DNA of 64,000 nucleotides from Bacteroidales bacterium (lineage in GTDB: Bacteria; Bacteroidota; Bacteroidia; Bacteroidales; VadinHA17). A program made the position numbers and the translations under genes. Within the stretch, counting starts at the first letter, position 1. Each line of letters opens with the position of its first letter. Below are positions 1 through 14,625 of the stretch, in pieces. The stretch covers positions 132,081-196,080 of the forward strand of contig CAXXWV010000002.1 of NCBI GenBank assembly GCA_963676175.2, written 5' to 3'. Below the pieces are notes generated by a model, which was given only the letters and a program-made list of their open reading frames with translations, ran no database searches and was not told the origin of the DNA.

Positions 1-513
1 GATGCCAATAAACATTATGCCGGCACTTCAGCTATTTCATTAAGCACCACTGACAGCAGGGAAGAAATAATGGAGAAGATATTTGCTTCAGCAGGAGAAT
101 CTGAATTGGCAAAACTGGCTCTTTATATTTTTCGGCAGATGGACAGGATCGACTGGAGACCCTTTATCAAGGCAGCCATTGAAAGAAATCCTGTATGTTT
201 CGGCGATCTGGGAAATAAGGAGCCGGATGAAGTTTACCCGGTACTGCTTAACCTTGATAATGAATCTATCTACAATGGTTTCAGGCTTGCACTGCCTGAT
301 GAGGTATGGAACTTCAGACGCGGAGACGGAATTGAGAAGGCATTACTAATGGCTGACCTGCTTGTTAAAAGAAACAGCGACACCGGAATCACGCTTAAAA
401 TTGCCGGCAGCAATGTTTTGCTTTCAGTTGGAAGTACAAGCTATGAATTCTCTTCGGAAAAGAATCTTACAAAGACAATCATTATCAAGGGAAATTCATA
501 TGTTATTGACTAG
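1..513 (+). CDS. hypothetical protein, 3' part (open to left window edge)
   Basis: Frame 1 is open from nt 1 (DANKHYAGTS...) through the listed 70..513 ORF to TAG at 511-513. No family recognised by eye. Confidence 0.6.
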   Translation, partial: DANKHYAGTSAISLSTTDSREEIMEKIFASAGESELAKLALYIFRQMDRIDWRPFIKAAIERNPVCFGDLGNKEPDEVYPVLLNLDNESIYNGFRLALPDEVWNFRRGDGIEKALLMADLLVKRNSDTGITLKIAGSNVLLSVGSTSYEFSSEKNLTKTIIIKGNSYVID

Positions 514-525
514 ACTAAACTAAAG

Positions 526-816
526 TCAGCGAAGAACGATATCTTTAATCAGCTCTTTTCCTGCTCTGCTGTTCAGTTTTTCCCTGAGAGCCTCTCGGAG
601 CATAAGAAGTTCATTCCTGACCACGGAGGAATTAAGATATACATACAGGACGTGATCCTTTATGTATATCTTTTTAGTTTTGGAGCTTATAGCCTTACCG
701 ACTATCTCCTCCCATGAATTCACGATGGAGGTCTCACTAAGCTTGTCTCCGAAATTCATTTCACGGATGTAATCACCAATAGCTTCAGCCAGGGATACTG
801 TTTTACTGCGTCTCAT
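526..816 (-). CDS. DUF721-type small protein (recF-associated)
   Basis: 96 aa. It lies directly downstream of recF, and its ATG overlaps the recF stop by 1 nt (TAATG). Size and position match the DUF721 proteins that follow recF in many bacteria. Confidence 0.75.
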   Translation of the reverse strand: MRRSKTVSLAEAIGDYIREMNFGDKLSETSIVNSWEEIVGKAISSKTKKIYIKDHVLYVYLNSSVVRNELLMLREALREKLNSRAGKELIKDIVLR

Positions 817-1940
817 TATTCCTCACTTTTTTTCCCTGTCACATCTGCAATAGTACCGTCGGAGATCCTGAAGAGCCTGAAATCTATGTTATGAGAAGAA
901 AGAATATCAAGCAACCGGTTCTGATGCGTGTCGGTTATAAATATCTGTCCGAACCTGTGATTACTTACGAGCTTGATTATCTGCTCGACACGATCTCCGT
1001 CGAACTTATCAAAAATATCGTCAAGAAGCAGTATTGGAGAAAAGCCTGCCTTTCTGTTAATATAATCGAACTTGGCAAGCTTAAGTGCAACAAGATAGGA
1101 TTTCTGCTGGCCCTGTGACCCCAGCGCTCTGACGGGATAACCATCCATTTCCAGAAGAAGATCATCCTTGTGTATTCCAGTGGTCGTATATTCAAGTATT
1201 CTGTCTTTTGGCAACGATTGAATAAGCAAATCCTGATAACTTCCCCCTGAAAGATGAGAGCTATATGTAAGCCTCACTTTTTCACGTCCCCCGGAAATCA
1301 TTCCGTAATACTCCTGAAAGACAGGTATCAGTTCATCCACAAGGTTCTGCCTCTCACTGTAAATGTATTCACCATAACGCACCAGCTGATCATTCCAGAT
1401 AGAGATCATCTCATCATCTTTATTTCCCGATGAATTCTGATCCTTGAGAAGTCTGTTCCGCTGCTGAAGGGCTTTGCCATAACGTAAGGCAGCATCAAGA
1501 TACCCGCCGTTATACTGACTTATTATCTTGTTCATGAATTTTCTCCGGTCCTCGCTTCCCTCAGTAATAAGCGAACTGTCGGCCGGCGAAATCATGACAA
1601 CAGGATAGCGGCCTACATGGTCAGATAATTTCTGATATTCCTTCCCGTTCCTTTTAAGTATCTTCTGTTTCTGCTTTTGAAAAGCACAGCAAATATTATC
1701 ATCCTCTTCATCGCGGCTGAATATTCCCTGTATTATAAAATATTCCTCGCCATGTCTGATACTGATGCTGTCGACGGAATTAAAGAAGCTTTTTGTAAGC
1801 GACAGATAATGAATGGCATCCAATATATTGGTCTTCCCTACCCCATTATTCCCTACAAAGCAGTTTACTTTAGACGAAAACTCCATTTCTCCAAGTTCGT
1901 AGTTCTTGAAATTCGTCAGGGTAAGTTTTTTAAGATACAT
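816..1940 (-). CDS. recF: DNA replication/repair protein RecF
   Basis: Has Walker A GNNGVGKTN, signature SQGQQKSYLVALKLA and Walker B LLLDDIFDKFD. I start at MYLKKLTLTNFKN (ATG at 1938-1940) rather than the ORF-track 2081, because the extension is hydrophobic junk running over the promoter and the IS stub. Confidence 0.93.
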   Translation of the reverse strand: MYLKKLTLTNFKNYELGEMEFSSKVNCFVGNNGVGKTNILDAIHYLSLTKSFFNSVDSISIRHGEEYFIIQGIFSRDEEDDNICCAFQKQKQKILKRNGKEYQKLSDHVGRYPVVMISPADSSLITEGSEDRRKFMNKIISQYNGGYLDAALRYGKALQQRNRLLKDQNSSGNKDDEMISIWNDQLVRYGEYIYSERQNLVDELIPVFQEYYGMISGGREKVRLTYSSHLSGGSYQDLLIQSLPKDRILEYTTTGIHKDDLLLEMDGYPVRALGSQGQQKSYLVALKLAKFDYINRKAGFSPILLLDDIFDKFDGDRVEQIIKLVSNHRFGQIFITDTHQNRLLDILSSHNIDFRLFRISDGTIADVTGKKSEE

Positions 1941-1955
1941 TGTTGCTGAGAAAGA

Positions 1956-1963
1956 CAAAAGTA
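1956..1963 (-). promoter_or_regulatory. candidate Bacteroidota -7 promoter box (TACTTTTG) for recF
   Basis: The minus strand reads TACTTTTG 15 nt upstream of the recF ATG and matches the TAnnTTTG consensus. Confidence 0.45.
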
Positions 1964-2028
1964 AAAAGCAAATGTAGAAAGTAAAAAGTGAAAAGTGAAT
2001 ACTCAGCCAGGTAAAATAGTAATAATAA

Positions 2029-2326
2029 GCTTTTGAAGATGGACGGTTTAATATTGACAATAACCTTATTGAAAACAGCATACGTCCCGTAGCTCTGGGA
2101 AGAAAGAATTATCTCTTTGCAGGATCACATGAGGCAGCACAGCACGGAGCAGTAATCTATTCGCTGCTTGCCACCTGCCAGATCAGAGGAGTGGATCCAT
2201 TTACATGGTTAAAGAACGCTCTGAAAACTATCCCGGATTACCCGGCAAACCAGTTGGAAAAATTACTCCCCAATAAATAATATCAAAATCCAGTCACTTC
2301 AAAGGTGTATTTCCCCAGTCGGATAC
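2029..2326 (+). mobile_element. IS66-family transposase C-terminal remnant (5'-truncated pseudogene, possibly with the right end of the IS)
   Basis: Frame open 2029-2280 translates AFEDGRFNIDNNLIENSIRPVALGRKNYLFAGSHEAAQHGAVIYSLLATCQIRGVDPFTWLKNALKTIPDYPANQLEKLLPNK*. This is the hallmark IS66 C-terminal block (DG..IDNN..EN.IRP.ALGRKN.LFAGS...). There is no start codon and no upstream transposase body. The end at about 2326 is a guess at the IS terminus. Confidence 0.8.
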
Positions 2327-2346
2327 AATTGAATAGGTAGTTAAGA

Positions 2347-2889
2347 TTAATAGGTTGGTTCATATTCTAGAATTTCTATTATCTCTTCATTAGGCGTGGT
2401 TTCTTTTATAGCATTTATAATCTTTTCTCTGGTTTTCTCAGTTAGTTTTGGCGTATATTTAATATTTAAACAACTGGATTCTTGCTTGTCTTTAAGGTTC
2501 GAAAAAGCATTTATGATATTATAATCCAGCTCAAGTGAGTTATCTTTTAACACTTTGTTTGAGTAATACTTTAAATAGCTTGAGGTGAGGAAAAGGTTTA
2601 TAATCGATTTTTGTTTATTCATTCTGTAAAGTTCATATTCTAACTCTGCTATTTTCAAATCAACTAAATTAGATTTTTCCAATATTACTTTAATATCTAC
2701 TTTACTAGGCATAGCGATAAGATCCTTCTTTAAAGAGTTGATCCCTTTCTTCTGACGCCATTTAAAAATACTAAGATTGGTTGGTATTTCAATAAAAAGA
2801 TAAGTAAATAAACTTCTCAATCCTTTAAAGATTAGATATATGAATAACCAGCTAAATGACAGTACTATTAATAGGAGTAAATCTTTCAT
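2347..2889 (-). CDS. hypothetical N-terminally membrane-anchored protein (island operon gene 4)
   Basis: 180 aa. Has a hydrophobic N-terminus (LLLLIVLSFSWLFIYLIF) followed by a K/E/N-rich soluble part. It sits 1 nt after the upstream gene and is very AT-rich. No family recognised. Confidence 0.7.
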   Translation of the reverse strand: MKDLLLLIVLSFSWLFIYLIFKGLRSLFTYLFIEIPTNLSIFKWRQKKGINSLKKDLIAMPSKVDIKVILEKSNLVDLKIAELEYELYRMNKQKSIINLFLTSSYLKYYSNKVLKDNSLELDYNIINAFSNLKDKQESSCLNIKYTPKLTEKTREKIINAIKETTPNEEIIEILEYEPTY

Positions 2890-2890
2890 T

Positions 2891-3322
2891 TTAAAAACGA
2901 TTATAGCTTAATACTAGAGAACCAAAACTTAAAAAATAACTAAACGTAATATTGAAGAATAATCTTCTATCGCTCAGTGGAGTTTTTTCTGTTCTCTTTC
3001 TACGTTTGATAAAGGACCCATAAAGGATCCCTAAACTAAAAGTAACCAAAATCAAGCACAAAAACCATAATATAAAAAAAACAAACGAAATTGGATTTGG
3101 AGAAATAAGGACTTTACTAATACAATATGCAATGGTAATAAAGGCAACGTCTATGCTATACCAGGAAAAAATCTCCCAATAATCGTTTGTTATTTCAATC
3201 AGATTTCTAATAAAGGTTTTAATACAAAATTTAAATACTAAGTAGACTAAAGGAGCGATAATTATAAAATTCTGTTCTAATATCTTTACACTTTGATCAA
3301 GTGTTAAAATGAAAGTACTCAT
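2891..3322 (-). CDS. hypothetical small polytopic membrane protein, about 4 TM (island operon gene 3)
   Basis: 143 aa with four hydrophobic stretches and a basic loop, KRRKRTEK. It sits 13 nt downstream of the receiver gene. No family recognised. Confidence 0.7.
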   Translation of the reverse strand: MSTFILTLDQSVKILEQNFIIIAPLVYLVFKFCIKTFIRNLIEITNDYWEIFSWYSIDVAFITIAYCISKVLISPNPISFVFFILWFLCLILVTFSLGILYGSFIKRRKRTEKTPLSDRRLFFNITFSYFLSFGSLVLSYNRF

Positions 3323-3335
3323 AATTGTTTTATTA

Positions 3336-3746
3336 CTATTGAAATATAGATTTAATTTTTAGTATTAGATCGTCAGTAGAGGAACTCTTATCTATGAAAT
3401 CAGCAACTTTATAAGTTTCAAGAAACCTTGAAACAAGGTTATCTTTCTTTAATATGCTTACGATTATGATTGGGATTTTATTGTCAATTTTACGTATTTC
3501 TTTAATTACAGCAGCTCCAGTTAGGGAGCCTCCATTGGTTTCTTCTTTGTTAAATTCATCACGAGGGGGCATTATTAGATCAACAATCACTAAATCAATA
3601 TCTTTAATTAATGAGTCTAATCTATATTTTATGTTAACAATGCTAAATTCAGGTTTTATACTAATACCATTGTCTTCTAAAATCTCAAATTTAGACCTCA
3701 TCTTTTCAGTATTAGCTTCATCATCAATGTATAAGGTTCTTATCAT
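3336..3746 (-). CDS. stand-alone response-regulator receiver (REC) protein
   Basis: 136 aa. Has the acidic pair YIDDE (D8/D9), a phospho-acceptor context DLVIVDLIMP (D56), IIIVS (S97) and FIDK (K120). There is no output domain. Confidence 0.85.
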   Translation of the reverse strand: MIRTLYIDDEANTEKMRSKFEILEDNGISIKPEFSIVNIKYRLDSLIKDIDLVIVDLIMPPRDEFNKEETNGGSLTGAAVIKEIRKIDNKIPIIIVSILKKDNLVSRFLETYKVADFIDKSSSTDDLILKIKSIFQ

Positions 3747-3752
3747 GACTTT

Positions 3753-6080
3753 TCAAATTAATTTTTTTGGTAATTCAAAATAAATTCTCGTAGGCTTTCT
3801 TAATTTCTCGATGAAAATCTTCCCCCTATGCTTCTCGATAATATTCTTACAGTATGCAAGACCAATGCCTGTTCCCTCTGGGAAAAATTTTGTAGCGTCA
3901 CTTCCTCTAGTAAATTTATTAAAAATAATATTTTCCTCCCCACTTTTTATACCAATTCCATTATCCTCAAGTATGAATTGAATTTTATCAGATTTGTCAA
4001 CTGCTGATATTTTAATATAATTTAATGGTTCATTGTCATCTTTATATTTAATCGAATTTCTTATTAAATTATAAAATACTCTCATTAAATGTAACTGATC
4101 CCCATTGAATTTCGAAGGGACGTCAAGATAATGTGGTAACGTAAAAATGATATTATGCCTCTCAAATTCATGCTTGAAAAAATATTCACATTTCCTTACT
4201 AATTCGAGAAAATTGAACTGTTGATTAATAGTTACTATTTTATCTAAATTATCCATACTATAAACTAGAACTTCGATCAACTTAATATTTTGTTCAATGT
4301 CGTCAAATTTAATTCCAATTTTACCTACATTCCAATTTTCTGGTTTATTGTTTTTAAGGTGATGTTTAAACCACTCTGAATGGTTCCTAATACCCTCTAC
4401 TGGGGAAAGTATTTCATGACGTAAAGAATAGATGTTCCTTTCCCTATCTTCCAGAATATTTTTTACCAACTTGACCTTTAATGTAACATTTGACACTACT
4501 TTACTAATATTTTCAAGTTTTATTATGTCATCATTAGTAAATCTATCAAACTGAAATCCTATTCTATTCGCTTTATTATTGCATCTTACTAGCCCAATTA
4601 CTTCTCCCTTTTCGCTTTTGAGAGGCACAAATATTATAGACTTAGATTTCTTATTTCCAATTATTTCACTAAACTTGTTTGCATGAATTTTTTCAAATTC
4701 TACGTTATAATCATCATAATAAATAAAAGATTTACATTTTTGAAATACATAGCCAGTAAGTCCTTCCCCAAGTTTATATCGGACTGTACTGTATTCATGA
4801 TTGCCTATTATACCTGTCGTGCCATAAAGAACAAGCTCAGAATTATTATCCTTTAAGAAAACAGAACACCCATCACTATTCATTATAGTTTTAACCAACT
4901 CAGCCATAGAGTTCCAAGAATTTCTTTCATCTTCAAATGTCATTAAATTTGAAAATATTTGATCGTATTCCTTTAAGAAATTCTGAATATTATCGAGGTT
5001 CCAGGACTTATGAATAATTTCAAATAACTTAAAATATGAACCTATTTCGTTTATTTTGAGATTGTTGTGAGCAAGTTCGGTTTTTTCAACTTCTCCATAA
5101 GTTTCAAATGGGGTATAATAGATTATTCCAATAAATTTTCCATCACTAAAAATTGGATAACTAATGAACCACTCGATGGAAAATTTATTAAAGAATTTTT
5201 TATGAGGAAAGTTCTCCAATTTATTTAGATTGCAGTAGATATGGGGTTGTTGACTTTCAAATACTTCCTTATCAAAACTATCGGATATTCTAATAATTTG
5301 ATTATCAAAGTCAGTTAAACTTACAGTACGGTTATCAACCTTCAATGGGTATAGAGACTTAAGTATAAGAACATCATCACTTTCAATTTCCGTATTCAAC
5401 CATAGACATAAAAATTTTATTCCAAAAACTTCATTAATCAAGTTAAAAAAATGATCAATAGTCTCATCGCATCCTACATCCATTTTTTCAGTTAAGTTTG
5501 AAATAAATTGCAGCCTCTTTTCACGATTTATATTTTCAAAATAATTTTGAGTAAAATATCTGAAGAGCTTCCCTAGGATCAGAAAAATGTTTCTTTCTGA
5601 ATTTACAATCTTCTGATTGAAATCAATTATTATGATACCAACGATGTCATTCAAGAATAAAATTGGAATAATTACCTCTGACTTTATTTTATCGTCAATA
5701 TTAATAAAGACACCATTTTTTTCTGAGTCTCTTGCTGAATTTATGATAACGATATCTTTCAATTGATATGCCTGCCCTATTGCACCATCACTTATATTTC
5801 GAGAGATTATTCTAACTTTTTTGGGCGAGGTATAATCCTTTGGTAAAACGAGGTCAATTTTAAATTCGTGAGTATCTTTTACATATTCATAATACCTACA
5901 CAAATATGGATTGAAGTGCTTATATATTAAAGCTACAAGTTGTTCAGGAAAGTTGTGGAGCGGTTGAGCAGCATAAAGACTCTCAAGCGATTTATTCATA
6001 TTTTCTAAAGAAATTGAAAATGAAACAAGTTTTTCACTTAAAGTTTTCGAACTTCTATCTCCGATATTAAAAAAACTCAT
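3753..6080 (-). CDS. soluble sensor histidine kinase with three GAF-like modules
   Basis: 775 aa with no TM segments. GAF-like motifs include DGAIGQAY and LGEGLTGYV. The H-box is SLRHEILSPVEGI (His555, codon 4416-4418), the N-box LIRNSIKY, the G1 box EDNGIGI and the G2 box GTGIGLAYCKNIIEKHRG. Confidence 0.88.
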   Translation of the reverse strand: MSFFNIGDRSSKTLSEKLVSFSISLENMNKSLESLYAAQPLHNFPEQLVALIYKHFNPYLCRYYEYVKDTHEFKIDLVLPKDYTSPKKVRIISRNISDGAIGQAYQLKDIVIINSARDSEKNGVFINIDDKIKSEVIIPILFLNDIVGIIIIDFNQKIVNSERNIFLILGKLFRYFTQNYFENINREKRLQFISNLTEKMDVGCDETIDHFFNLINEVFGIKFLCLWLNTEIESDDVLILKSLYPLKVDNRTVSLTDFDNQIIRISDSFDKEVFESQQPHIYCNLNKLENFPHKKFFNKFSIEWFISYPIFSDGKFIGIIYYTPFETYGEVEKTELAHNNLKINEIGSYFKLFEIIHKSWNLDNIQNFLKEYDQIFSNLMTFEDERNSWNSMAELVKTIMNSDGCSVFLKDNNSELVLYGTTGIIGNHEYSTVRYKLGEGLTGYVFQKCKSFIYYDDYNVEFEKIHANKFSEIIGNKKSKSIIFVPLKSEKGEVIGLVRCNNKANRIGFQFDRFTNDDIIKLENISKVVSNVTLKVKLVKNILEDRERNIYSLRHEILSPVEGIRNHSEWFKHHLKNNKPENWNVGKIGIKFDDIEQNIKLIEVLVYSMDNLDKIVTINQQFNFLELVRKCEYFFKHEFERHNIIFTLPHYLDVPSKFNGDQLHLMRVFYNLIRNSIKYKDDNEPLNYIKISAVDKSDKIQFILEDNGIGIKSGEENIIFNKFTRGSDATKFFPEGTGIGLAYCKNIIEKHRGKIFIEKLRKPTRIYFELPKKLI

Positions 6081-6812
6081 TTTTTGAAATTTTTATAGAT
6101 AAAATGAATTCGTAAGGATTATAAGAATTGTATTCCTTTTGAAAAATTCATTCTAATATTATACCCAATGATTGAAGTTTTAATTAAAGCAATTTATATA
6201 TGTCCTTTTTAAATATCCATTCTTAAATTAAGAATAAACCATTATATCAATGAGTAACTAAAAGTAATTAAGTTAGTTCTTCAATATCTGTTCATTTTGA
6301 GCAAGTTATTTTTCCTCAATTGGTATAAGTATAGTTTTGTAGTCAATTACATGACCATCTTATACATCTTCTTATCAAACATTAGCCTAATAAAATTAAA
6401 CTATATTTTTTATTTTGCAAAACTTTGTTTCAGTACGTCTCACCATATAAACCAAGGTGCACTCAACTACTCTTTTCAAAGACTTTGACTGAAGCCATTC
6501 TACATTTAAATCCCCATATAATTGAACAATGGGTCATACAAGTTGATTTTATTCTTAGCCTAAGCAACCCACCCAATAAGCTCATTCGACAGTCTATTCT
6601 CTTCTATTGTTAATCCTAACTGTTTTGAAAGGGTGTAAAATGGCACGAACCAGATCATCATATAAAGCTCTTGTCGAGTTAAGACAGTTCTTTCCATTTT
6701 GATAGTATTAATGTTCTATAATACTGGAGTTTCCTTAAAATTTAGTATAAAAATTCTGATGGGCTGATATAATGCGAGATTAAGAACTTTTATAAGTGAA
6801 ACCCAAACAAAA

Positions 6813-7727
6813 ATCGAGTTTCCTCAAAAAAATGCGTCCAAACAACGAACCTGGCATTTGACTAAAATATCAAAACTCAAATGGACGCAAATTCTTTATT
6901 AATGAACCGGTTCAGGATGCAAAATAATAAATTTTCAGGAACTATTTCAAGAAGTCTTGGCAAAGTTAAAAAACGATTGGTTTAAGAGATGATTTATCGG
7001 ATACAGGCATCAAAAGACGTTAAGCTTTCAAATATAAGGCGAGCATTAATGGAATCTGTTCCACTGATAAAGACTGAAGACAGGCTAAGTCGCAATTTGG
7101 GTGACGAGGATCTGACCTCCACGATTAATAATAATATCCTGCGACTGGCCGATGACAAGGTTGATGAAACGATGGTTATAGCTATTGATCCGGGCGACAT
7201 GATGAAACCATACGCGAAGGTGATGGAAAATTTGTGCAACATCTATGATGGTAGCAGCCACAACCAGGCAAGAGGTTATCATCTGTGCCAGGTAACAGCG
7301 GCGAATCAAGCTCACGACAGAATAGTGCCATTGTATTGCGAGGCATATTCAACAGAAACTGAAGATTACCCAGGGAGTACTGAAAAACTCATTGAGATTA
7401 TCAGAAAAGTCAAAGCATATACTGGTGCCACAGGCACTTAGGCAATTGACAGGCAAGGTGATGATACATGCATAGCTTATTTTACAAGTATATATCTGGG
7501 AATGTCTTTAAAACTGAAGATCTTGGTTCAAAAAATTTTCATCCTCTCGAAAAGATTTTTTGGAGTACCCTCATTTTATAACTATGCAATGGCTGATGGT
7601 ATCTTTGAACTTATAAAACACTCGAAACGGGGATTATCTGAATTCAGAGGTAGAATTGGACCCCATCATGACAGGTTCCAGCTATCTTTATTCCCAGACT
7701 AACCATTTTTTGAGGAAACTCCAGGAA
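6813..7727 (+). mobile_element. degenerate, internally deleted IS element with terminal inverted repeats
   Basis: The left end atcgagtttcctcaaaaaaatg (6813-6834) matches the reverse complement of the right end cattttttgaggaaactccag (7705-7727), with about 2 mismatches and 1 indel. It encloses a broken transposase ORF. At about 0.9 kb it is too short for an intact IS. Confidence 0.7.
6881..7702 (+). pseudogene. DDE transposase pseudogene (IS4/IS1634-like; family uncertain)
   Basis: One reading frame is interrupted by TAA (6983-6985) and TAG (7439-7441, where a Trp is expected: GT*AIDRQGDD). It contains VIAIDPGDMMKPYAKVMENL (first D region) and a C-terminal GIFELIKHSKRGLSEF (E/K region). The middle of the protein is missing. 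Confidence 0.7.
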
Positions 7728-9033: not shown

Positions 9034-11940
9034 TTATCTTGTGCAAAGTCCCCTGTAGGAACACCACGAACATTTTCCCCTGATATCAGAAGTCATTACA
9101 AATTCAGAATCCATACTGAATATTGAAGACACCGTGTTTTTTAGATTTTCAATAAATTCTACACGTATCTCATGATAATCATCAAGCTGGCGATCAGTCC
9201 TCTGGTCGGTTTTTAGTTTAAGTTTATCATTTCCCGAAATAACTGATTTTCTGACTCTGTAAACCGATGGCCGTACTTTTGCATCCGGATTTGAGATAAG
9301 ATAGGCCTCGCAGTATAGGAGAGTTTGCAGCCAGGCATCGAGGTCTTTCTTCCTGTCGTCGGTAAAAAGCTCTTCCACCGATCCGATCTTTTCAGCCACA
9401 GAACCGGTCTTATAGTCCACAATTCTTATACTCCCTTCTGCCTGGTCAATCCTGTCAACAATACCTCCAACGGTAACTTCATTTTCAATACCGTTGATAT
9501 TCACCTTCATGTCGAATTTGTACTCCGATTCCAGGGCTATGATACTAAAGGGGGCAACAGCTTTATCAGCTTTAAGGATTTTCTGAACAAAGCTTTTTAA
9601 AACTTCCCTGATTATCAGTTCGGAGCCTTCTACCCGACGGTCGGTACCTCCGCTGAATCTACTGCTGATCGAATCCTTTATGATATCCTCCAACCCGGTG
9701 CCGTTCCGAAGTATCCCGTCAATAACGTTTTCTCCCGTTACCTGTCCTCCTGTGCCGTCATAGAGCTTTTGCATTATTTCATGCAGGATAGCTCCAAGCA
9801 TGGCTGAATCTATATCTTTTGATATCTCTTCCGGTTCCTTAAGCCCGTTAACGTATCGGTAGTAAAACTTCATCCTGCAGCCCAACCATGTATTTATGGC
9901 AGATGGAGAAAGAGTTCTCCTGTTATCAGGCGATAAAAACCTCGACCGAAGACGCCTGTCATGATCTTCAGTTCTGGCGATACTCCTGGCAACCGGACCA
10001 TGTGATCTGATCTCAAAATTAAGATTCATGAATTCAGGCTTCAGGCGCTCATCATATCTCATTTGATTCAGAAACCTGCTCATTTCGCCTGTTCTGAGAC
10101 CGTCGGAATTTGAATTGTACAGAAATGTGACGTTCTCGGCTCTTTCAAGCAGTCTGTAAAAATGATATGCATATATCGACTCCTGATGATTGATTGAAGG
10201 TATCCCAAAAGCTTCCCTGAGATTGTATGGAATAAAGGAGGAACCTGTCGAAACAGACGGTAATACACCTTCATTTACAGACAGTATGATTAGGTTCCTG
10301 AAGTCAAGGGCCCGGGTCTCCAGTATTCCCATTATCTGAATACCGGATAATGGTTCACCAGAGAAGGGGACGGACTGGATCTTGAGTATTTTATCCAGGA
10401 TCTTCATATAAGTATCGGCGGAAAAAGTCACATCTGTCTGACTGACTATGGAATCAAGCCTGTTTACCGACAGTAATCCGCTGTAGATAAACTCATTTCT
10501 TATCCTTTCGTCCATTGTCCGGCCATCCGGATTATCATTTCCATGAATATTCAACGATCCGATAGTGGCAAGGATATTCCTGAAATATTCTGATAATTGA
10601 AGAGTGGTCGCTGGTTTCGAGAAAACAAGTGAAAGATATCCGGATTCCGCGAAACGATTGGCCGGGACCCAGAGCAGATTGGTAACAATGATCTCCTCTA
10701 TCAGCTCATTTTCCTTCTCCCCTGCCAGGCTTTCAGTCAGCGGATGTCTGAGTATATTAAGCACATCGCGATGATTAAACCTCACACCGGAACCTGAATG
10801 AGATGCATTGCGCTGAAGGTCCATCAGGTGTTTCAGGAAAGTATAAACCAGGGTCTGTCTCAGGGGATATCCCATGGTAATATTGATGTCCCCATTGTAT
10901 GCAGGCAGACTGGTTAACACAGGGATAAGAAGATTCTCATCTGCAAGCACTACAGCAGTATGATGAGCTGTTTCCGGATTAAGTCCGGGCAGCTGGCTAA
11001 GGAGATGAGGTAAAAGTTTTACCTGTGCCACATCGGAAGAGGTTTCAATAACTCTTCTCGGAACGCTTTCCGCCGTTGGTGAAAGAAGTGTATCGTAATT
11101 CCAGTCAGCCGGCATGTCGTTGCCGAACATCCTGATGTTGTTCCGCATGAAAAAACCAGCTGAATTCCGGGTACCCTCTTTAATGAAAGAATTATCATAG
11201 TCCCAGTAGAATTTAGCCTTCCCGGCCTTCCTGAAACCATGCATCAACTTTTTCTCACACTCATTGAGCGCATTGAACCCGATAAAATGAATCGTCTCCC
11301 AGGCAATGGATGAATAGAAATCCCCATCCATATTCTCAGCTATATCTCTGAATATCATGCCTTCATAGGCAAGTCCTTTTGATTTAAGGTTCTCTCTGAA
11401 TTCCTGATATAGATCCAGCAGAACCGACCAGATATCAGTAAAGCTGGCCTTCTGTTTTGTAGGTTTATCAGGATTAAAATTCACCCAGAATTTCCTAATC
11501 ACTTCCACCTGCAAAGTTGTCAGTTCACCGAATTGTCTGTCAATGTTTTTAAGATCCTGAACATTATTGAACAATAACCTGGCGTCAACAAGATATTTAT
11601 CTACATCGTCAAAATCATTCAGCAGCATGTCTCCCCAGAAATAGAACTCGTCGAATTTTTCAGGGATTTTTTTCACTTTGGTGTAGGTGCGGTAAAGCTC
11701 AAAGAGAAGGATTTCAGGATATGCAGTCTGCATGGAGGAGTAAGAAGAGAACAACTCATTGATGGTATAAACTGCAGGTGTCCATACCGGTTTTTGAATC
11801 ATCGATGCAAGATATCGCATGAAATATAACCCGGCTCTTCTGTTAGGAAAGACCAGACAATGCCTGTTCAGTTCATTTCCATACCTTTGATTCAGGTCTC
11901 TTGCAATATTCTGAAGGAAGTACTCCATTTTGGTTTCCAA
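9034..11940 (-). CDS. AddB-like PD-(D/E)XK nuclease family protein
   Basis: 968 aa. The C-terminal nuclease motif is VDRIDQ...IRIVDYKTG, flanked by four Cys (WLGCRMKF; CSWCSYRGLC) as in the Fe-S 'iron staple' of AddB. It is partnered by a UvrD-type helicase gene nearby. Confidence 0.8.
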   Translation of the reverse strand: METKMEYFLQNIARDLNQRYGNELNRHCLVFPNRRAGLYFMRYLASMIQKPVWTPAVYTINELFSSYSSMQTAYPEILLFELYRTYTKVKKIPEKFDEFYFWGDMLLNDFDDVDKYLVDARLLFNNVQDLKNIDRQFGELTTLQVEVIRKFWVNFNPDKPTKQKASFTDIWSVLLDLYQEFRENLKSKGLAYEGMIFRDIAENMDGDFYSSIAWETIHFIGFNALNECEKKLMHGFRKAGKAKFYWDYDNSFIKEGTRNSAGFFMRNNIRMFGNDMPADWNYDTLLSPTAESVPRRVIETSSDVAQVKLLPHLLSQLPGLNPETAHHTAVVLADENLLIPVLTSLPAYNGDINITMGYPLRQTLVYTFLKHLMDLQRNASHSGSGVRFNHRDVLNILRHPLTESLAGEKENELIEEIIVTNLLWVPANRFAESGYLSLVFSKPATTLQLSEYFRNILATIGSLNIHGNDNPDGRTMDERIRNEFIYSGLLSVNRLDSIVSQTDVTFSADTYMKILDKILKIQSVPFSGEPLSGIQIMGILETRALDFRNLIILSVNEGVLPSVSTGSSFIPYNLREAFGIPSINHQESIYAYHFYRLLERAENVTFLYNSNSDGLRTGEMSRFLNQMRYDERLKPEFMNLNFEIRSHGPVARSIARTEDHDRRLRSRFLSPDNRRTLSPSAINTWLGCRMKFYYRYVNGLKEPEEISKDIDSAMLGAILHEIMQKLYDGTGGQVTGENVIDGILRNGTGLEDIIKDSISSRFSGGTDRRVEGSELIIREVLKSFVQKILKADKAVAPFSIIALESEYKFDMKVNINGIENEVTVGGIVDRIDQAEGSIRIVDYKTGSVAEKIGSVEELFTDDRKKDLDAWLQTLLYCEAYLISNPDAKVRPSVYRVRKSVISGNDKLKLKTDQRTDRQLDDYHEIRVEFIENLKNTVSSIFSMDSEFVMTSDIRGKCSWCSYRGLCTR

Positions 11941-11980
11941 ATTTAGTGAATAGCTGTCAGCCTCCGCGTTTTAAAGTGAT

Positions 11981-11988
11981 TATATTTG
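11981..11988 (+). promoter_or_regulatory. candidate -7 promoter box (TATATTTG)
   Basis: TAnnTTTG match 22 nt upstream of the ATG at 12011. Confidence 0.4.
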
Positions 11989-12010
11989 TTGTTAAGCCAA
12001 TTATGAATAT

Positions 12011-13642
12011 ATGATATGCAGGAATCTGATAGGTGCAGGACTGACAGTCATGTGTCTGCTGCCCGGATGTAACAGGACGGACCAACAGTCGGAGAACAGG
12101 GAACGTCTTTTTTTTGATCAGGCTGAATTCAACGGGAAACTGGTGAATGAAGGTTTTAACAGGTGCCTGAACTACACCAATGCCTGGCTTGGTCTGGCAG
12201 ATAAGGAGACTGGGCTGATACCACGCAATATTATTGACTCCGGGAGCAAGGATATCTGGAATGCAAAAGATTGCGGGGCAGATAATTACCCGTTCATGGT
12301 GCTCACTTGCGCCTTGCTTGACCAGGATCTGTTCAATGGCAGAATGAGGGAAATTCTCCGCACGGAAACAAAAATTACATCCCGGATTGGTTCGCTTCCG
12401 GACACGTATTCATTTTCAAAGCATGGATTTTTGAACAATCAGGTAAATCTTGAAGATATTATTTTCGGTTCTTCCGAATATGTCAAAGATGGTCTGATCC
12501 CCCTTACCGAATGGCTTGGTCCAAGCCCCTGGTCAGAAAGAATGATCTCGATAATCAATGATGAATTGAAATATGCTCCGGTAAAAACAAAGTCCGGCAA
12601 TATTATTTCTGATAATCCGGAAGTGAACGGAGACATGCTCCAGTCTCTTTCGAGGATCTATTGGATGACCGGCAACAGTAAGTATCTCGAAGAAGCCATA
12701 CGGATCGGTGATTATTATCTGCTTGGAAATAATCATCCTACCCGTGATTTCAAGGTACTCCGACTTCGTGATCATGGATGTGAAATAATCTCCGGATTAT
12801 GTGAACTGTACGCTACTTTAAGTTACTGCGATACTGTTAAAAAAAATGAATATCGTGCGCCTCTTTATGAGATGCTTGACAGAATACTTGAAACCGGAAG
12901 GAATGCCGACGGACTTTTCTACAATTCAATAGATCCGGTCAGAGGGATACCTGTTGACGGTGCTATTGCAGACAATTTTGGATATACACTTAACGGCTTT
13001 TATACCGTCTGGCTCATTGATCACATTAAAAAATACAGGGATCCTGTCATCAAAGCTTTATCGGTCCTGAATGAAAAATACAGGAATTTTCCATGGGAAG
13101 GCTCAAGCGCGGACGGCTATGCCGATGCAATAGAAGGAGCTTTAAACCTAGATGCGCGTGAACCTTCGACATCAACGGAACAATGGATGAACAGCGAAAT
13201 AAAGGTAATGTGGTCGAAACAGAAAAAATCAGGGCTTATTGAAGGCTGGCACGGAGACGGGAATTTTGCCAGGACAACGATAATGTATTGTTTTTGGAAA
13301 ACAGCCGGGACATATCTGATGCCATGGAGGCAGGACCTTGAGTACGGCGCAATTATGGACGACAGCCTGCTTTTTCTTAGTATCTATGCTGTTCAAGACT
13401 GGGATGGAAAACTGATGTTCGATAAAAAACGTCACTCTGAATTCCTTCATCTGCCGGTTGACTGGCCAAGAATCAACCAGTTTCCGGAATATTTCACAGT
13501 AGTTGCTGAAGCAAAATATGAGATCAGGACATCTGAAAAAAAGAATATATTGATTATTCCGGGGAATGAGCTCGGAAAGGGATTGCCTCTGAAAATAGGT
13601 AAAGGAGAATATCTGAGGCTCAGGATCAGGAAGCTGACATGA
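12011..13642 (+). CDS. hypothetical lipoprotein
   Basis: 543 aa with a lipoprotein-type signal (VMCLLPGCNR). No catalytic family recognised by eye. Confidence 0.75.
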   Translation: MICRNLIGAGLTVMCLLPGCNRTDQQSENRERLFFDQAEFNGKLVNEGFNRCLNYTNAWLGLADKETGLIPRNIIDSGSKDIWNAKDCGADNYPFMVLTCALLDQDLFNGRMREILRTETKITSRIGSLPDTYSFSKHGFLNNQVNLEDIIFGSSEYVKDGLIPLTEWLGPSPWSERMISIINDELKYAPVKTKSGNIISDNPEVNGDMLQSLSRIYWMTGNSKYLEEAIRIGDYYLLGNNHPTRDFKVLRLRDHGCEIISGLCELYATLSYCDTVKKNEYRAPLYEMLDRILETGRNADGLFYNSIDPVRGIPVDGAIADNFGYTLNGFYTVWLIDHIKKYRDPVIKALSVLNEKYRNFPWEGSSADGYADAIEGALNLDAREPSTSTEQWMNSEIKVMWSKQKKSGLIEGWHGDGNFARTTIMYCFWKTAGTYLMPWRQDLEYGAIMDDSLLFLSIYAVQDWDGKLMFDKKRHSEFLHLPVDWPRINQFPEYFTVVAEAKYEIRTSEKKNILIIPGNELGKGLPLKIGKGEYLRLRIRKLT

Positions 13643-13656
13643 TGAAGGTGGCAGTT

Positions 13657-14625
13657 TCAGGACTGAGGATATAGTCTGCCCTGCCAGGTGTTGAGCTTCT
13701 CAAGTCTTTTTTCAACGATGCCAACAATCTCATCACTTCTTTTCATGCCCCAGCCCGGTCCGGTGAGGAATCTGGGAGGAGCCTCCCCTGTGAACCTTTC
13801 GACAACGATCATCGGATTGAGATGTTCCAGAAATTTTATAAAAAACCCCAGGTATTCATCCCAGGTAAATAGCTCAAATTCATCCGGATCTTTCCGAAAC
13901 TCTTTTTCCATACCGGTACCTTTAATAATCTGAAGCTGATGGAATTTTACCGTTCTGAGAGGAAGGTGTGAGATAATATCCGCTTCCTTCAGCATATCCT
14001 CCCTCGATTCACCGGGAAGTCCAAAAATAAAATGTGCACCTGTATTGATCCCAAGCGCCGACGTCTTTTCCACAGCTTCCTCAGCTTCCTCAAACGTATG
14101 CCCCCTGTTGATCCGCCTCAGGGTCTTGTTATAGCACGATTCGATACCATATTCAACCGCTATATAATGTTTTTCAGACAGTTCCCGGATATAGGAAAGC
14201 TTCTCGTCGTCGATGCAATCAGGCCTGGTCCCTATAATCAATCCGACCACTCCCGGAATACTCAAAGCCTCCTCATAAAGCTCCCTGAGCCTTGATAAAG
14301 GGGCATATGTGTTAGAATAAGCCTGAAAATAAGCCAGGTAAGAATTTGCCTCCCTGTATCTTTTAGTATGAAATTCTATACCTTCCGCTATCTGCTGTGA
14401 TATAGTTTTCACAGGTTGGCAATATGATGGATTGAAAGCATCATTGTTGCAATAAGTGCAGCCTCCGTTACCTTTAGAACCATCCCTGTTCGGACAGGTG
14501 AATCCGGCATCAACGGATACTTTCTGCACCCTTGCACCAAATAATTTCCTGAAATAATTGGAGTATGCATTGAACCTGCGCTCATGTCCCCAAGGGAATA
14601 CCTGTTTCCGGATCTCTTCCACCAC
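13657..14625 (-). CDS. TIGR01212-type radical SAM protein
   Basis: Motifs seen are DAGFTCPNRDG...GGCTYCNN and the downstream radical-SAM core. Its GTG start sits directly after the TGA of the upstream helicase gene. Confidence 0.85.
   Translation of the reverse strand: MVEEIRKQVFPWGHERRFNAYSNYFRKLFGARVQKVSVDAGFTCPNRDGSKGNGGCTYCNNDAFNPSYCQPVKTISQQIAEGIEFHTKRYREANSYLAYFQAYSNTYAPLSRLRELYEEALSIPGVVGLIIGTRPDCIDDEKLSYIRELSEKHYIAVEYGIESCYNKTLRRINRGHTFEEAEEAVEKTSALGINTGAHFIFGLPGESREDMLKEADIISHLPLRTVKFHQLQIIKGTGMEKEFRKDPDEFELFTWDEYLGFFIKFLEHLNPMIVVERFTGEAPPRFLTGPGWGMKRSDEIVGIVEKRLEKLNTWQGRLYPQS

Follow-up and report, generated by a model that had tools for sequence, protein, structure and literature searches.

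A compact cassette of four genes, located in a 64,000-nucleotide (nt) stretch of DNA from a Bacteroidales bacterium of the VadinHA17 lineage (contig CAXXWV010000002.1, positions 132,081 to 196,080 of the forward strand; the whole stretch is referred to below as the window), is a candidate for a system in which two-component phosphotransfer is combined with separate, non-transcriptional output proteins, and it includes two protein families without known relatives; its function is a prediction. The cassette encodes a histidine kinase (HK), a receiver-only protein (REC) and two small membrane proteins, which we call TM4 and P180. The reading that we favor, and to which we give somewhat less than even confidence, is that the receiver, once phosphorylated, touches the two membrane proteins directly and so controls them, and that the cassette has a role in conflict or defense. 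The four genes, with the lengths of their open reading frame (ORF) products in amino acids (aa), are as follows.

3753-6080, minus strand: histidine kinase gene, ORF of 775 aa
3336-3746, minus strand: receiver (REC) gene, ORF of 136 aa
2891-3322, minus strand: TM4 gene, ORF of 143 aa
2347-2889, minus strand: P180 gene, ORF of 180 aa

A first-pass annotation, made by a model from the letters of the window, had described these genes as tightly packed on the minus strand. We verified this description, as the ORF coordinates are identical and the intergenic gaps are 6, 13 and 1 nt.

The order HK-REC-TM4-P180, again tightly spaced, was found in no fewer than five further, independent loci from metagenomes (L001/L002, L003, L077, L079 and L081), and partial copies of the module are present in L080 and L078. 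L001/L002 and L003 were found via the contigs of kinase homologues, and L077 to L081 via the contigs of P180 matches obtained with phmmer. The gene products of the complete copies are given below in gene order.

L001/L002: 772, 137, 142 and 185 aa, same order, gaps of 1-10 nt
L003: 757, 138, 140 and 183 aa, same order, gaps of 1-10 nt
L077: HK, REC, 137-aa protein and 182-aa protein
L079: 757-aa HK with GAF domain (full-length identity of 32%), REC, 145-aa protein and 231-aa protein
L081: HK, REC, 145-aa protein and 243-aa protein

Identity to the window proteins ranges from 32 to 53% for the kinase, 36 to 60% for the receiver, 25 to 46% for TM4 and 20 to 41% for P180; the values for L001/L002 and L003 are 52-53%, 46-60%, 44-46% and 40-41%, respectively. 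TM4 and P180 always co-occur and do so solely downstream of this receiver, and each of the seven TM4 homologues (25-46% identity) lies between a REC gene and a P180 gene. Further, the lengths and motifs of TM4 and P180 are kept down to 20-25% identity. Because the four-gene order recurs across independent loci, we conclude from these comparisons that both small ORFs are real genes and that the module is complete with four genes. The HK-REC-TM-TM order that had been proposed for the window is thus present elsewhere, next to different neighbors, and the TM ORFs are conserved. The module family is very rare: an exhaustive phmmer search with P180 gave 11 matches, the query included, in 1.84 billion representatives. 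A metagenome scan with TM4 returned only a JGI contig that was already known. We note that a word-indexed protein search with TM4 and P180 returned the query alone and that exact-sequence look-up likewise missed records of these two small proteins; the former result is an artifact of sensitivity and not proof that the proteins are orphans, and the homologues were recovered via the kinase neighborhoods and the exhaustive phmmer search.

The receiver scores 30.1 bits against the Pfam Response_reg model, for which the cut-off is 30.2, and its profile matches receivers in the PDB at an E value of 1e-11. It has the full catalytic set (D8, D9, D56, S97 and K120), with D56 as the predicted phospho-acceptor; across 15 sequences, D8, D9, D56 and K120 do not vary, and position 97 is either Ser or Thr. 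Likewise, P60, G73, G77 and P92 are invariant in the alignment of the receiver subfamily, from which profile A7 was made. Compared with CpxR (4uhj), the receiver contains an insertion of ~13 residues after an "MPP" motif; the insertion is marked by EETNGGSLTG in the window and by xDTNGGxxTG in the subfamily. Profile A7 gives members of the subfamily 121-161 bits, including sequences outside its build, and other receivers 68 bits or less (82 records). By these sequence criteria, we conclude that the receiver belongs to a distinct subfamily marked by the conserved insertion. The first-pass description of a 136-aa receiver-only protein with D56 as the acceptor agrees with our findings, in that the acceptor residues are intact and the protein is single-domain. 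The architecture was therefore right, but its unusualness was overstated: receiver-only response regulators are a common class and often act on distant partners.

The kinase matches the Pfam HATPase_c model (E value of 1.6e-19) and contains one GAF domain above threshold (residues 393-526). As in the receiver, the catalytic residues are conserved: four homologues all retain H555 of the H box and, in the N, G1, F and G2 boxes, N671, N675, G708, G710, F720, G736 and G738. The Pfam HisKA match is weak (E value of 0.097). From these motifs, we assign the kinase to the class-I type with a HisKA-like dimerization region and HATPase domain and predict H555 as its phosphorylated histidine. We consider the kinase not to be a hybrid because Pfam detects no REC domain in it. 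Its sole strongly hydrophobic stretch (residues 136-154) falls within the first GAF-like module and, because of this position, is probably buried GAF core and not a transmembrane (TM) helix, so that the kinase is read as soluble; hydropathy likewise gave no convincing TM segment, as had been noted before. With regard to the "about three" GAF modules originally ascribed to the kinase, only the module at residues 393-526 is confident, and the two N-terminal modules are weakly supported. The latter have sub-threshold Pfam GAF matches (E values of 3e-4 and 0.026), internal profile-profile comparison of the kinase modules with hhalign was weak (P values of 3.6e-4 and 1e-3) and a structural model made from four sequences (predicted local distance difference test, pLDDT, of 53) has an alternating helix/sheet pattern consistent with GAF modules. 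A triple-GAF architecture is thus plausible, and full-length homologues of the kinase were found at 52%, 53% and 32% identity.

By hydropathy, TM4 contains three segments that are strongly hydrophobic and, at the C-terminal end, a weaker one. The earlier description of a "4-TM" protein therefore holds for three segments, and the fourth is probable. TM4 carries a conserved D-x-W-E-x-x-x-W loop after TM segment 1, and the loop that leads into its final helix is strongly basic. In P180, hydropathy shows a single TM segment, which is N-terminal and has a conserved LSxSW..Y motif; next come a basic juxtamembrane stretch (W-R-x-K-K-G) and a C-terminal domain of ~130 aa that is helical. P180 thus conforms to the 1-TM protein with a charged soluble tail that had been recognized at the outset. 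Because of the basic juxtamembrane stretch, the C-terminal domain of P180 is predicted to be cytoplasmic under either topology. A single-sequence AlphaFold2 (AF2) model of P180 has a pLDDT of 50 and is confident in the N-terminal helix only. Searches with TM4 and P180, as single sequences and as family profiles, gave no match in Pfam, NCBIfam, PADLOC, PHROGs or PDB sequences, in line with the initial failure to place either protein in a family. We predict that TM4 is an output component of the cassette and that P180 is an output or adaptor component.

The kinase and receiver also occur in a wider family. When GTDB species representatives were scanned with the kinase alignment, most matches were generic kinases; in ~10 reference-genome loci, however, the gene directly after that of a related GAF kinase encodes a small receiver belonging to the subfamily described above. 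The next gene after the receiver in these relatives lies 0-50 nt away and is of variable type, as listed below.

L011, L018, L036 and L054: S8 subtilase after the receiver (the L054 protein also has HEAT repeats)
L012: 415-aa protein and then a CHAT peptidase after the receiver
L004: SPFH/Band-7 membrane protein after the receiver (a homologous ORF in L005 is cut by the contig end)

The subtilases of the family resemble the PADLOC "subtilase" and IetS models. Further, the S8 effectors and the 415-aa protein of L012 have a common N-terminal domain with a conserved W...GG..E motif, which may be a common adaptor or docking domain and is found in the proteins encoded at the following positions.

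L018, 11336-13990: protein with the W...GG..E domain
L036, 11266-13959: protein with the W...GG..E domain
L054, 10816-14382: protein with the W...GG..E domain
L011, 11293-12939: protein with the W...GG..E domain
L012, 11128-12375: protein with the W...GG..E domain

We interpret the kinase-receiver pair, on the basis of these gene arrangements, as a conserved sensor-switch core and the downstream slot as a swappable effector cassette; a conserved sensor-switch pair with exchangeable effector-like genes is an architecture typical of conflict systems. The proposal of the first-pass annotation that the output consists of membrane proteins, and not of transcription, gains support from the swappable protease and SPFH cassettes, but its choice of an output over a co-sensor role for TM4 and P180 is a matter of interpretation. 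Two further arrangements were observed. In the variant at L028 (8963-13291), a GAF kinase and a receiver of the subfamily are followed by a protein of 234 aa with a HATPase domain only, a protein of 161 aa and another receiver that is nearly a duplicate of the first. A distant kinase (P0006, 24% identity; JGI 3300075153) occurs in the order PycTM/CyanoTRADDas_TM-like 229-aa protein, HK, 137-aa REC and 159-aa protein.

Under the mechanism that we propose, the soluble multi-GAF kinase would sense an intracellular cue and autophosphorylate on H555, and the phosphoryl group would then be passed to D56 of the stand-alone receiver. Because the receiver has no output domain, we suggest that its phosphorylated form acts by protein-protein contact on the co-encoded membrane proteins, as CheY acts on FliM. 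The contacts would probably be made by the C-terminal domain of P180, which is predicted to be cytoplasmic, by the conserved TM4 loops or by both, and the likely result would be altered membrane integrity or permeability, leading to growth arrest or abortive-infection-type defense. We infer phosphotransfer, contact, membrane damage and an anti-phage role from what was observed directly, i.e. the gene order, its conservation, the catalytic residues, the swapping of cassettes and the genomic context.

The neighborhoods of the homologous modules were inspected, and defense or toxin-antitoxin genes are present in three of the five loci with usable flanks (the window being counted among the five). 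In L001, a DrmC-like PLD nuclease gene lies upstream of the module (3582-4043), and three genes directly downstream of it (10375-14403) encode a small protein that is Csx27-like/PDC-M48A, a protein with an MBL fold that resembles PDC-M48B and a fusion of E1-E2 (ThiF) and JAB with 783 aa, so that the surroundings look like a defense island. In L003, the region at 497-4640 has a PD-Lambda-2_B-like M78 peptidase gene beside thymidine hypermodification genes (aGPT-Pplase3/ADDT and thymidylate-synthase-like) and may be a phage-derived or DNA-modification island. MazE/PIN and RHH/PemK pairs adjoin the module in L079, and the neighbors in L077 are genes for an ABC permease and for proteins with Por_Secre_tail, a type IX secretion signal. 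At every locus the module has a lower GC content than its flanks, the difference being 1-14 points overall and 5-14 points for loci of the TM4/P180 type, with the exception of the single flank of L081. The low GC content in every locus, the rarity of the module and the insertion sequences (IS) that flank it in the window fit horizontally acquired, mobile accessory cargo. The neighborhoods fit cargo that frequently, though not invariably, settles beside defense genes, in a sample that is too small for statistics.

We compared the cassette with known systems. Our search of the literature on two-component-based defense found only Detocs and Ambrosia, neither of which matches the cassette. Detocs (Rousset et al. 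2023, bioRxiv 10.1101/2023.01.24.525353) consists of a kinase with TPR repeats (DtcA), a receiver-only protein proposed to be a buffer (DtcB) and an effector fused to a receiver (DtcC), and its effectors are modular, being purine nucleoside phosphorylase (PNP), nuclease, TM and other types. It resembles the cassette in its use of His-Asp phosphotransfer in a non-transcriptional system, its receiver-only protein, its modular effectors (including TM types) and its operon layout. Unlike DtcA, however, the window kinase has GAF and, by Pfam, no TPR; and whereas DtcC fuses the effector to a receiver, the window has one REC and the putative effectors are separate, TM4 and P180 containing no REC by Pfam or by profile A7. 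Because a TPR kinase and a receiver-effector fusion are both absent, the cassette is not a member of Detocs, and the view that it is architecturally different from Detocs was correct. No Dtc-named PADLOC model matched the operon proteins at an E value of 1 or less, in a library that may hold no Detocs models. Ambrosia, in which a two-component pair with a regulator of winged helix-turn-helix (wHTH) type is coupled to restriction-modification-like enzymes, is unrelated in design.

The closest analog for the action of a bare receiver is the CheA-CheY-FliM pathway, where the phosphorylation state of such a receiver is likewise read by a membrane-associated target. The window kinase differs from CheA, which has Hpt, P2 and CheW-like domains, in consisting of GAF modules, a dimerization region and HATPase_c, the targets would be two novel small membrane proteins and the receiver has the ~13-residue insertion; there are no che genes in the operon or its flanks. 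In the LytSR-LrgAB/CidAB systems, a membrane kinase with a GAF domain (LytS) is paired with LytR, a regulator that binds DNA through its LytTR domain, and holin-like membrane proteins are encoded beside the pair. The order of kinase, regulator, ~140-aa four-TM protein and second membrane protein is similar to that of the cassette, as is the GAF kinase. However, LytS is membrane-bound, LytR acts on transcription and LrgB has many TM segments compared with one in P180, and TM4, P180 and REC gave no Pfam match to the LrgA/CidA or LytTR families at an E value of 1 or less; the cassette has no homology to LrgB either. The activation of a small membrane protein by an upstream sensor-signal step is also a feature of CBASS, Pycsar (PycTM) and Detocs TM effectors. 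The signal here would be a phosphorylated protein, in contrast to the cyclic nucleotide of CBASS and Pycsar, and TM4 and P180 match no effector model in PADLOC or Pfam. In PADLOC-DB v2, the HATPase part of the kinase matches PDC-M43B (E value of 1e-10) and the receiver matches PDC-M60B (E value of 0.002; 4e-7 for the L018 relative), these two being the only models matched by the operon proteins. These matches are to generic domains, and the partner genes of the PDC-M43 and PDC-M60 candidates were not found. Identity with a known or candidate PADLOC defense system was considered and rejected, as the components do not all match models of one system.

The following points count against the reading that we favor. 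With a pLDDT of 50, structure prediction gives no backing for a pore or for an adaptor fold in P180, and BLAST and hhalign detected no docking domain common to P180/TM4 and the protease-type effectors. The defense-like neighbors are anecdotal: the flanks in the window and L077 contain housekeeping or secretion genes, and those of the protease-type relatives are mixed. No phage-borne copies were found, since viral scans with the REC, TM4 and P180 alignments gave no relatives, and no plasmid-borne copies either, as tblastn searches against plasmids gave generic kinases only. The PADLOC matches are at the domain level for HK and REC, with none for TM4 or P180, which is also what became of the PADLOC check suggested with the first-pass annotation. 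Of the defense role that this annotation envisaged, the part borne out is that some homologous loci look defense-like; an anti-phage function is our extrapolation from them, the PADLOC evidence being domain-level.

Further, the direction of information flow could be the reverse, i.e. the membrane proteins could be inputs. The cassette would then be an ordinary accessory signaling module in which TM4 and P180 act as inputs or anchors that tether and modulate the soluble kinase and report the state of the envelope or membrane, and the receiver acts on unlinked targets or as a phosphate sink. LiaF, VraT and YycH/I are small membrane proteins that act on kinases. That the window kinase has no TM segment of its own, that its N-terminal modules are conserved alongside TM4 and P180 (as in L079, at 32% full-length identity) and that the window and L077 have no defense neighbors all speak for such a module. 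So do the well known accessory membrane proteins of kinases, of which the VraTSR three-component system provides an example, and the common receiver-only regulators with often distant partners, such as MrrA. However, the same slot in the relatives is occupied by S8 and CHAT peptidases, which are effector-like and not sensor-like; this argues against an input role but is not decisive. The low GC content in all loci, the rarity and the IS flanks in the window indicate mobile accessory cargo, and several neighborhoods are rich in defense or toxin-antitoxin genes. Overall, we regard an input role for TM4 and P180 as rather unlikely, but as the main alternative to the reading that we favor.

A role in addiction or stress, akin to that of toxin-antitoxin modules, was also considered. 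TM4, with or without P180, would be a membrane toxin that the kinase and receiver restrain constitutively, with the phosphorylated receiver as its antidote, so that loss of signaling or of the cassette would free the toxin, and the function would be to stabilize a mobile island and not to sense phage. Small hydrophobic proteins beside regulators are typical of membrane-toxin modules, L079 adjoins two toxin-antitoxin pairs, the cassette is mobile, of low GC content and IS-flanked, and the receiver-only protein of Detocs has been proposed to buffer against autotoxicity. However, a simple antidote would hardly call for so elaborate a sensor (775 aa, multi-GAF), and a sensor-switch-effector logic is the better fit for the relatives that carry proteases. 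We consider this explanation improbable.

Control of TM4 and P180 by the phosphorylated receiver, as favored above, has a broader form. The cassette and its relatives may represent a second, Detocs-independent class of two-component immunity, in which a soluble multi-GAF kinase that senses infection would phosphorylate a dedicated receiver-only switch, recognizable by its conserved DTNGGxxTG insertion, and the switch would activate, by contact, separately encoded and swappable killing modules. The killing modules would be a membrane-disrupting complex of TM4 and P180, subtilases or caspase-like CHAT peptidases, and TM4 and P180 would constitute a new family of phosphorylation-gated membrane effectors. 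We put this forward as a possibility, which we doubt more than we believe.

The local surroundings of the operon in the window include the following features.

2029-2280, plus strand: 3' fragment of an IS66-family transposase gene, last ~83 codons (DDE_Tnp_IS66_C, E value of 1.3e-11, 44.9 bits against a cut-off of 30, in translation)
2233-2245, minus strand: terminator-like hairpin ~100 nt downstream of the last operon gene (consensus scan, weak)
6081-6720, minus strand: AT-rich, gene-free stretch upstream of the kinase gene, the presumed promoter or leader
6724-7724, plus strand: decayed IS remnant of the right flank, comprising a transposase pseudogene bracketed by inverted repeats

The IS66 fragment is positioned on the left flank, between recF and the 3' end of the operon. 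The transposase pseudogene of the right flank spans 6989-7702, with an in-frame TAG stop at 7439-7441 (read-through translation); it has weak NCBIfam matches (IS701, E value of 1.4e-3, and IS4, E value of 0.02) and no Pfam match. Inverted repeats were found on both sides, with two candidates on the left (6724-6740 and 6816-6831) and a single one on the right (7706-7724), and a tblastn search of this IS remnant against plasmids gave no match. The GC content of the four-gene module is 28.5%, compared with 41-42% in the flanking DNA, and its 2-kb windows, at 29-30% GC, are the minimum across the 64 kb. The first-pass term "AT-rich, IS-flanked island" is thus correct, given the GC contrast and the IS debris on both sides. 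Beyond the island, recF and a DUF721 gene are the neighbors on the left, and genes for a TPR protein, ribH and a large gene those on the right. We note that the long recF ORF (816-2081) overlaps the IS66 fragment via a 47-codon N-terminal extension; this extension is probably spurious, the real start being the Met near 1940 (MYLKKLTLTNF...).

The operon's 3' end directly adjoins the IS66 transposase fragment, and the first-pass annotation had raised the possibility that the real output gene was lost to the IS66 insertion. In such a decayed system, the insertion would have removed the true output gene, for example one for an enzyme or a DNA-binding regulator, and the small ORFs would be incidental. 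We reject this suggestion as very improbable because the module ends at P180 everywhere, with differing genes beyond. At the five other loci the same four genes likewise end in a P180 homologue, which is followed by a Csx27-like gene in L001, by a convergent ABC permease gene in L077 and by nothing called in L079 and L081; and both small ORFs keep their lengths and motifs, as described above, at identities as low as 20-25%.

Upstream of the kinase gene, 0.9-1.05 kb without genes precedes the operon in all four loci that have upstream DNA.

Window, 6081-6988: gene-free upstream stretch
L001, 5439-6354: gene-free upstream stretch
L003, 4641-5696: gene-free upstream stretch
L079, 2064-2988: gene-free upstream stretch

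These four regions of ~1 kb have no common ORF or DNA sequence, and Rfam gave no match in that of the window. A sigma-70 scan for the operon promoter performed no better than on shuffled sequences, and no Bacteroidota-type TAnnTTTG motif is present upstream of the operon.

Overall, we conclude that the cassette is a good candidate for a conflict or anti-phage system that is new and driven by phosphorylation. If TM4 and P180 prove to be inputs, the cassette would add a new case in which accessory membrane proteins feed a soluble kinase, which is of narrower interest. If they are instead controlled by the phosphorylated receiver, His-Asp phosphorelays would serve as the signaling core of conflict or immune systems beyond transcription, for which experimental documentation so far comes mainly from Detocs, and would do so in a new design, that of a free-standing receiver switch with separate, exchangeable effectors. 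TM4 and P180 would be two new families of membrane proteins, and the receiver subfamily would provide a search handle for more cassettes with subtilase, CHAT or SPFH proteins. The four small genes would then offer a simple test bed for the CheY-like gating of a membrane effector.

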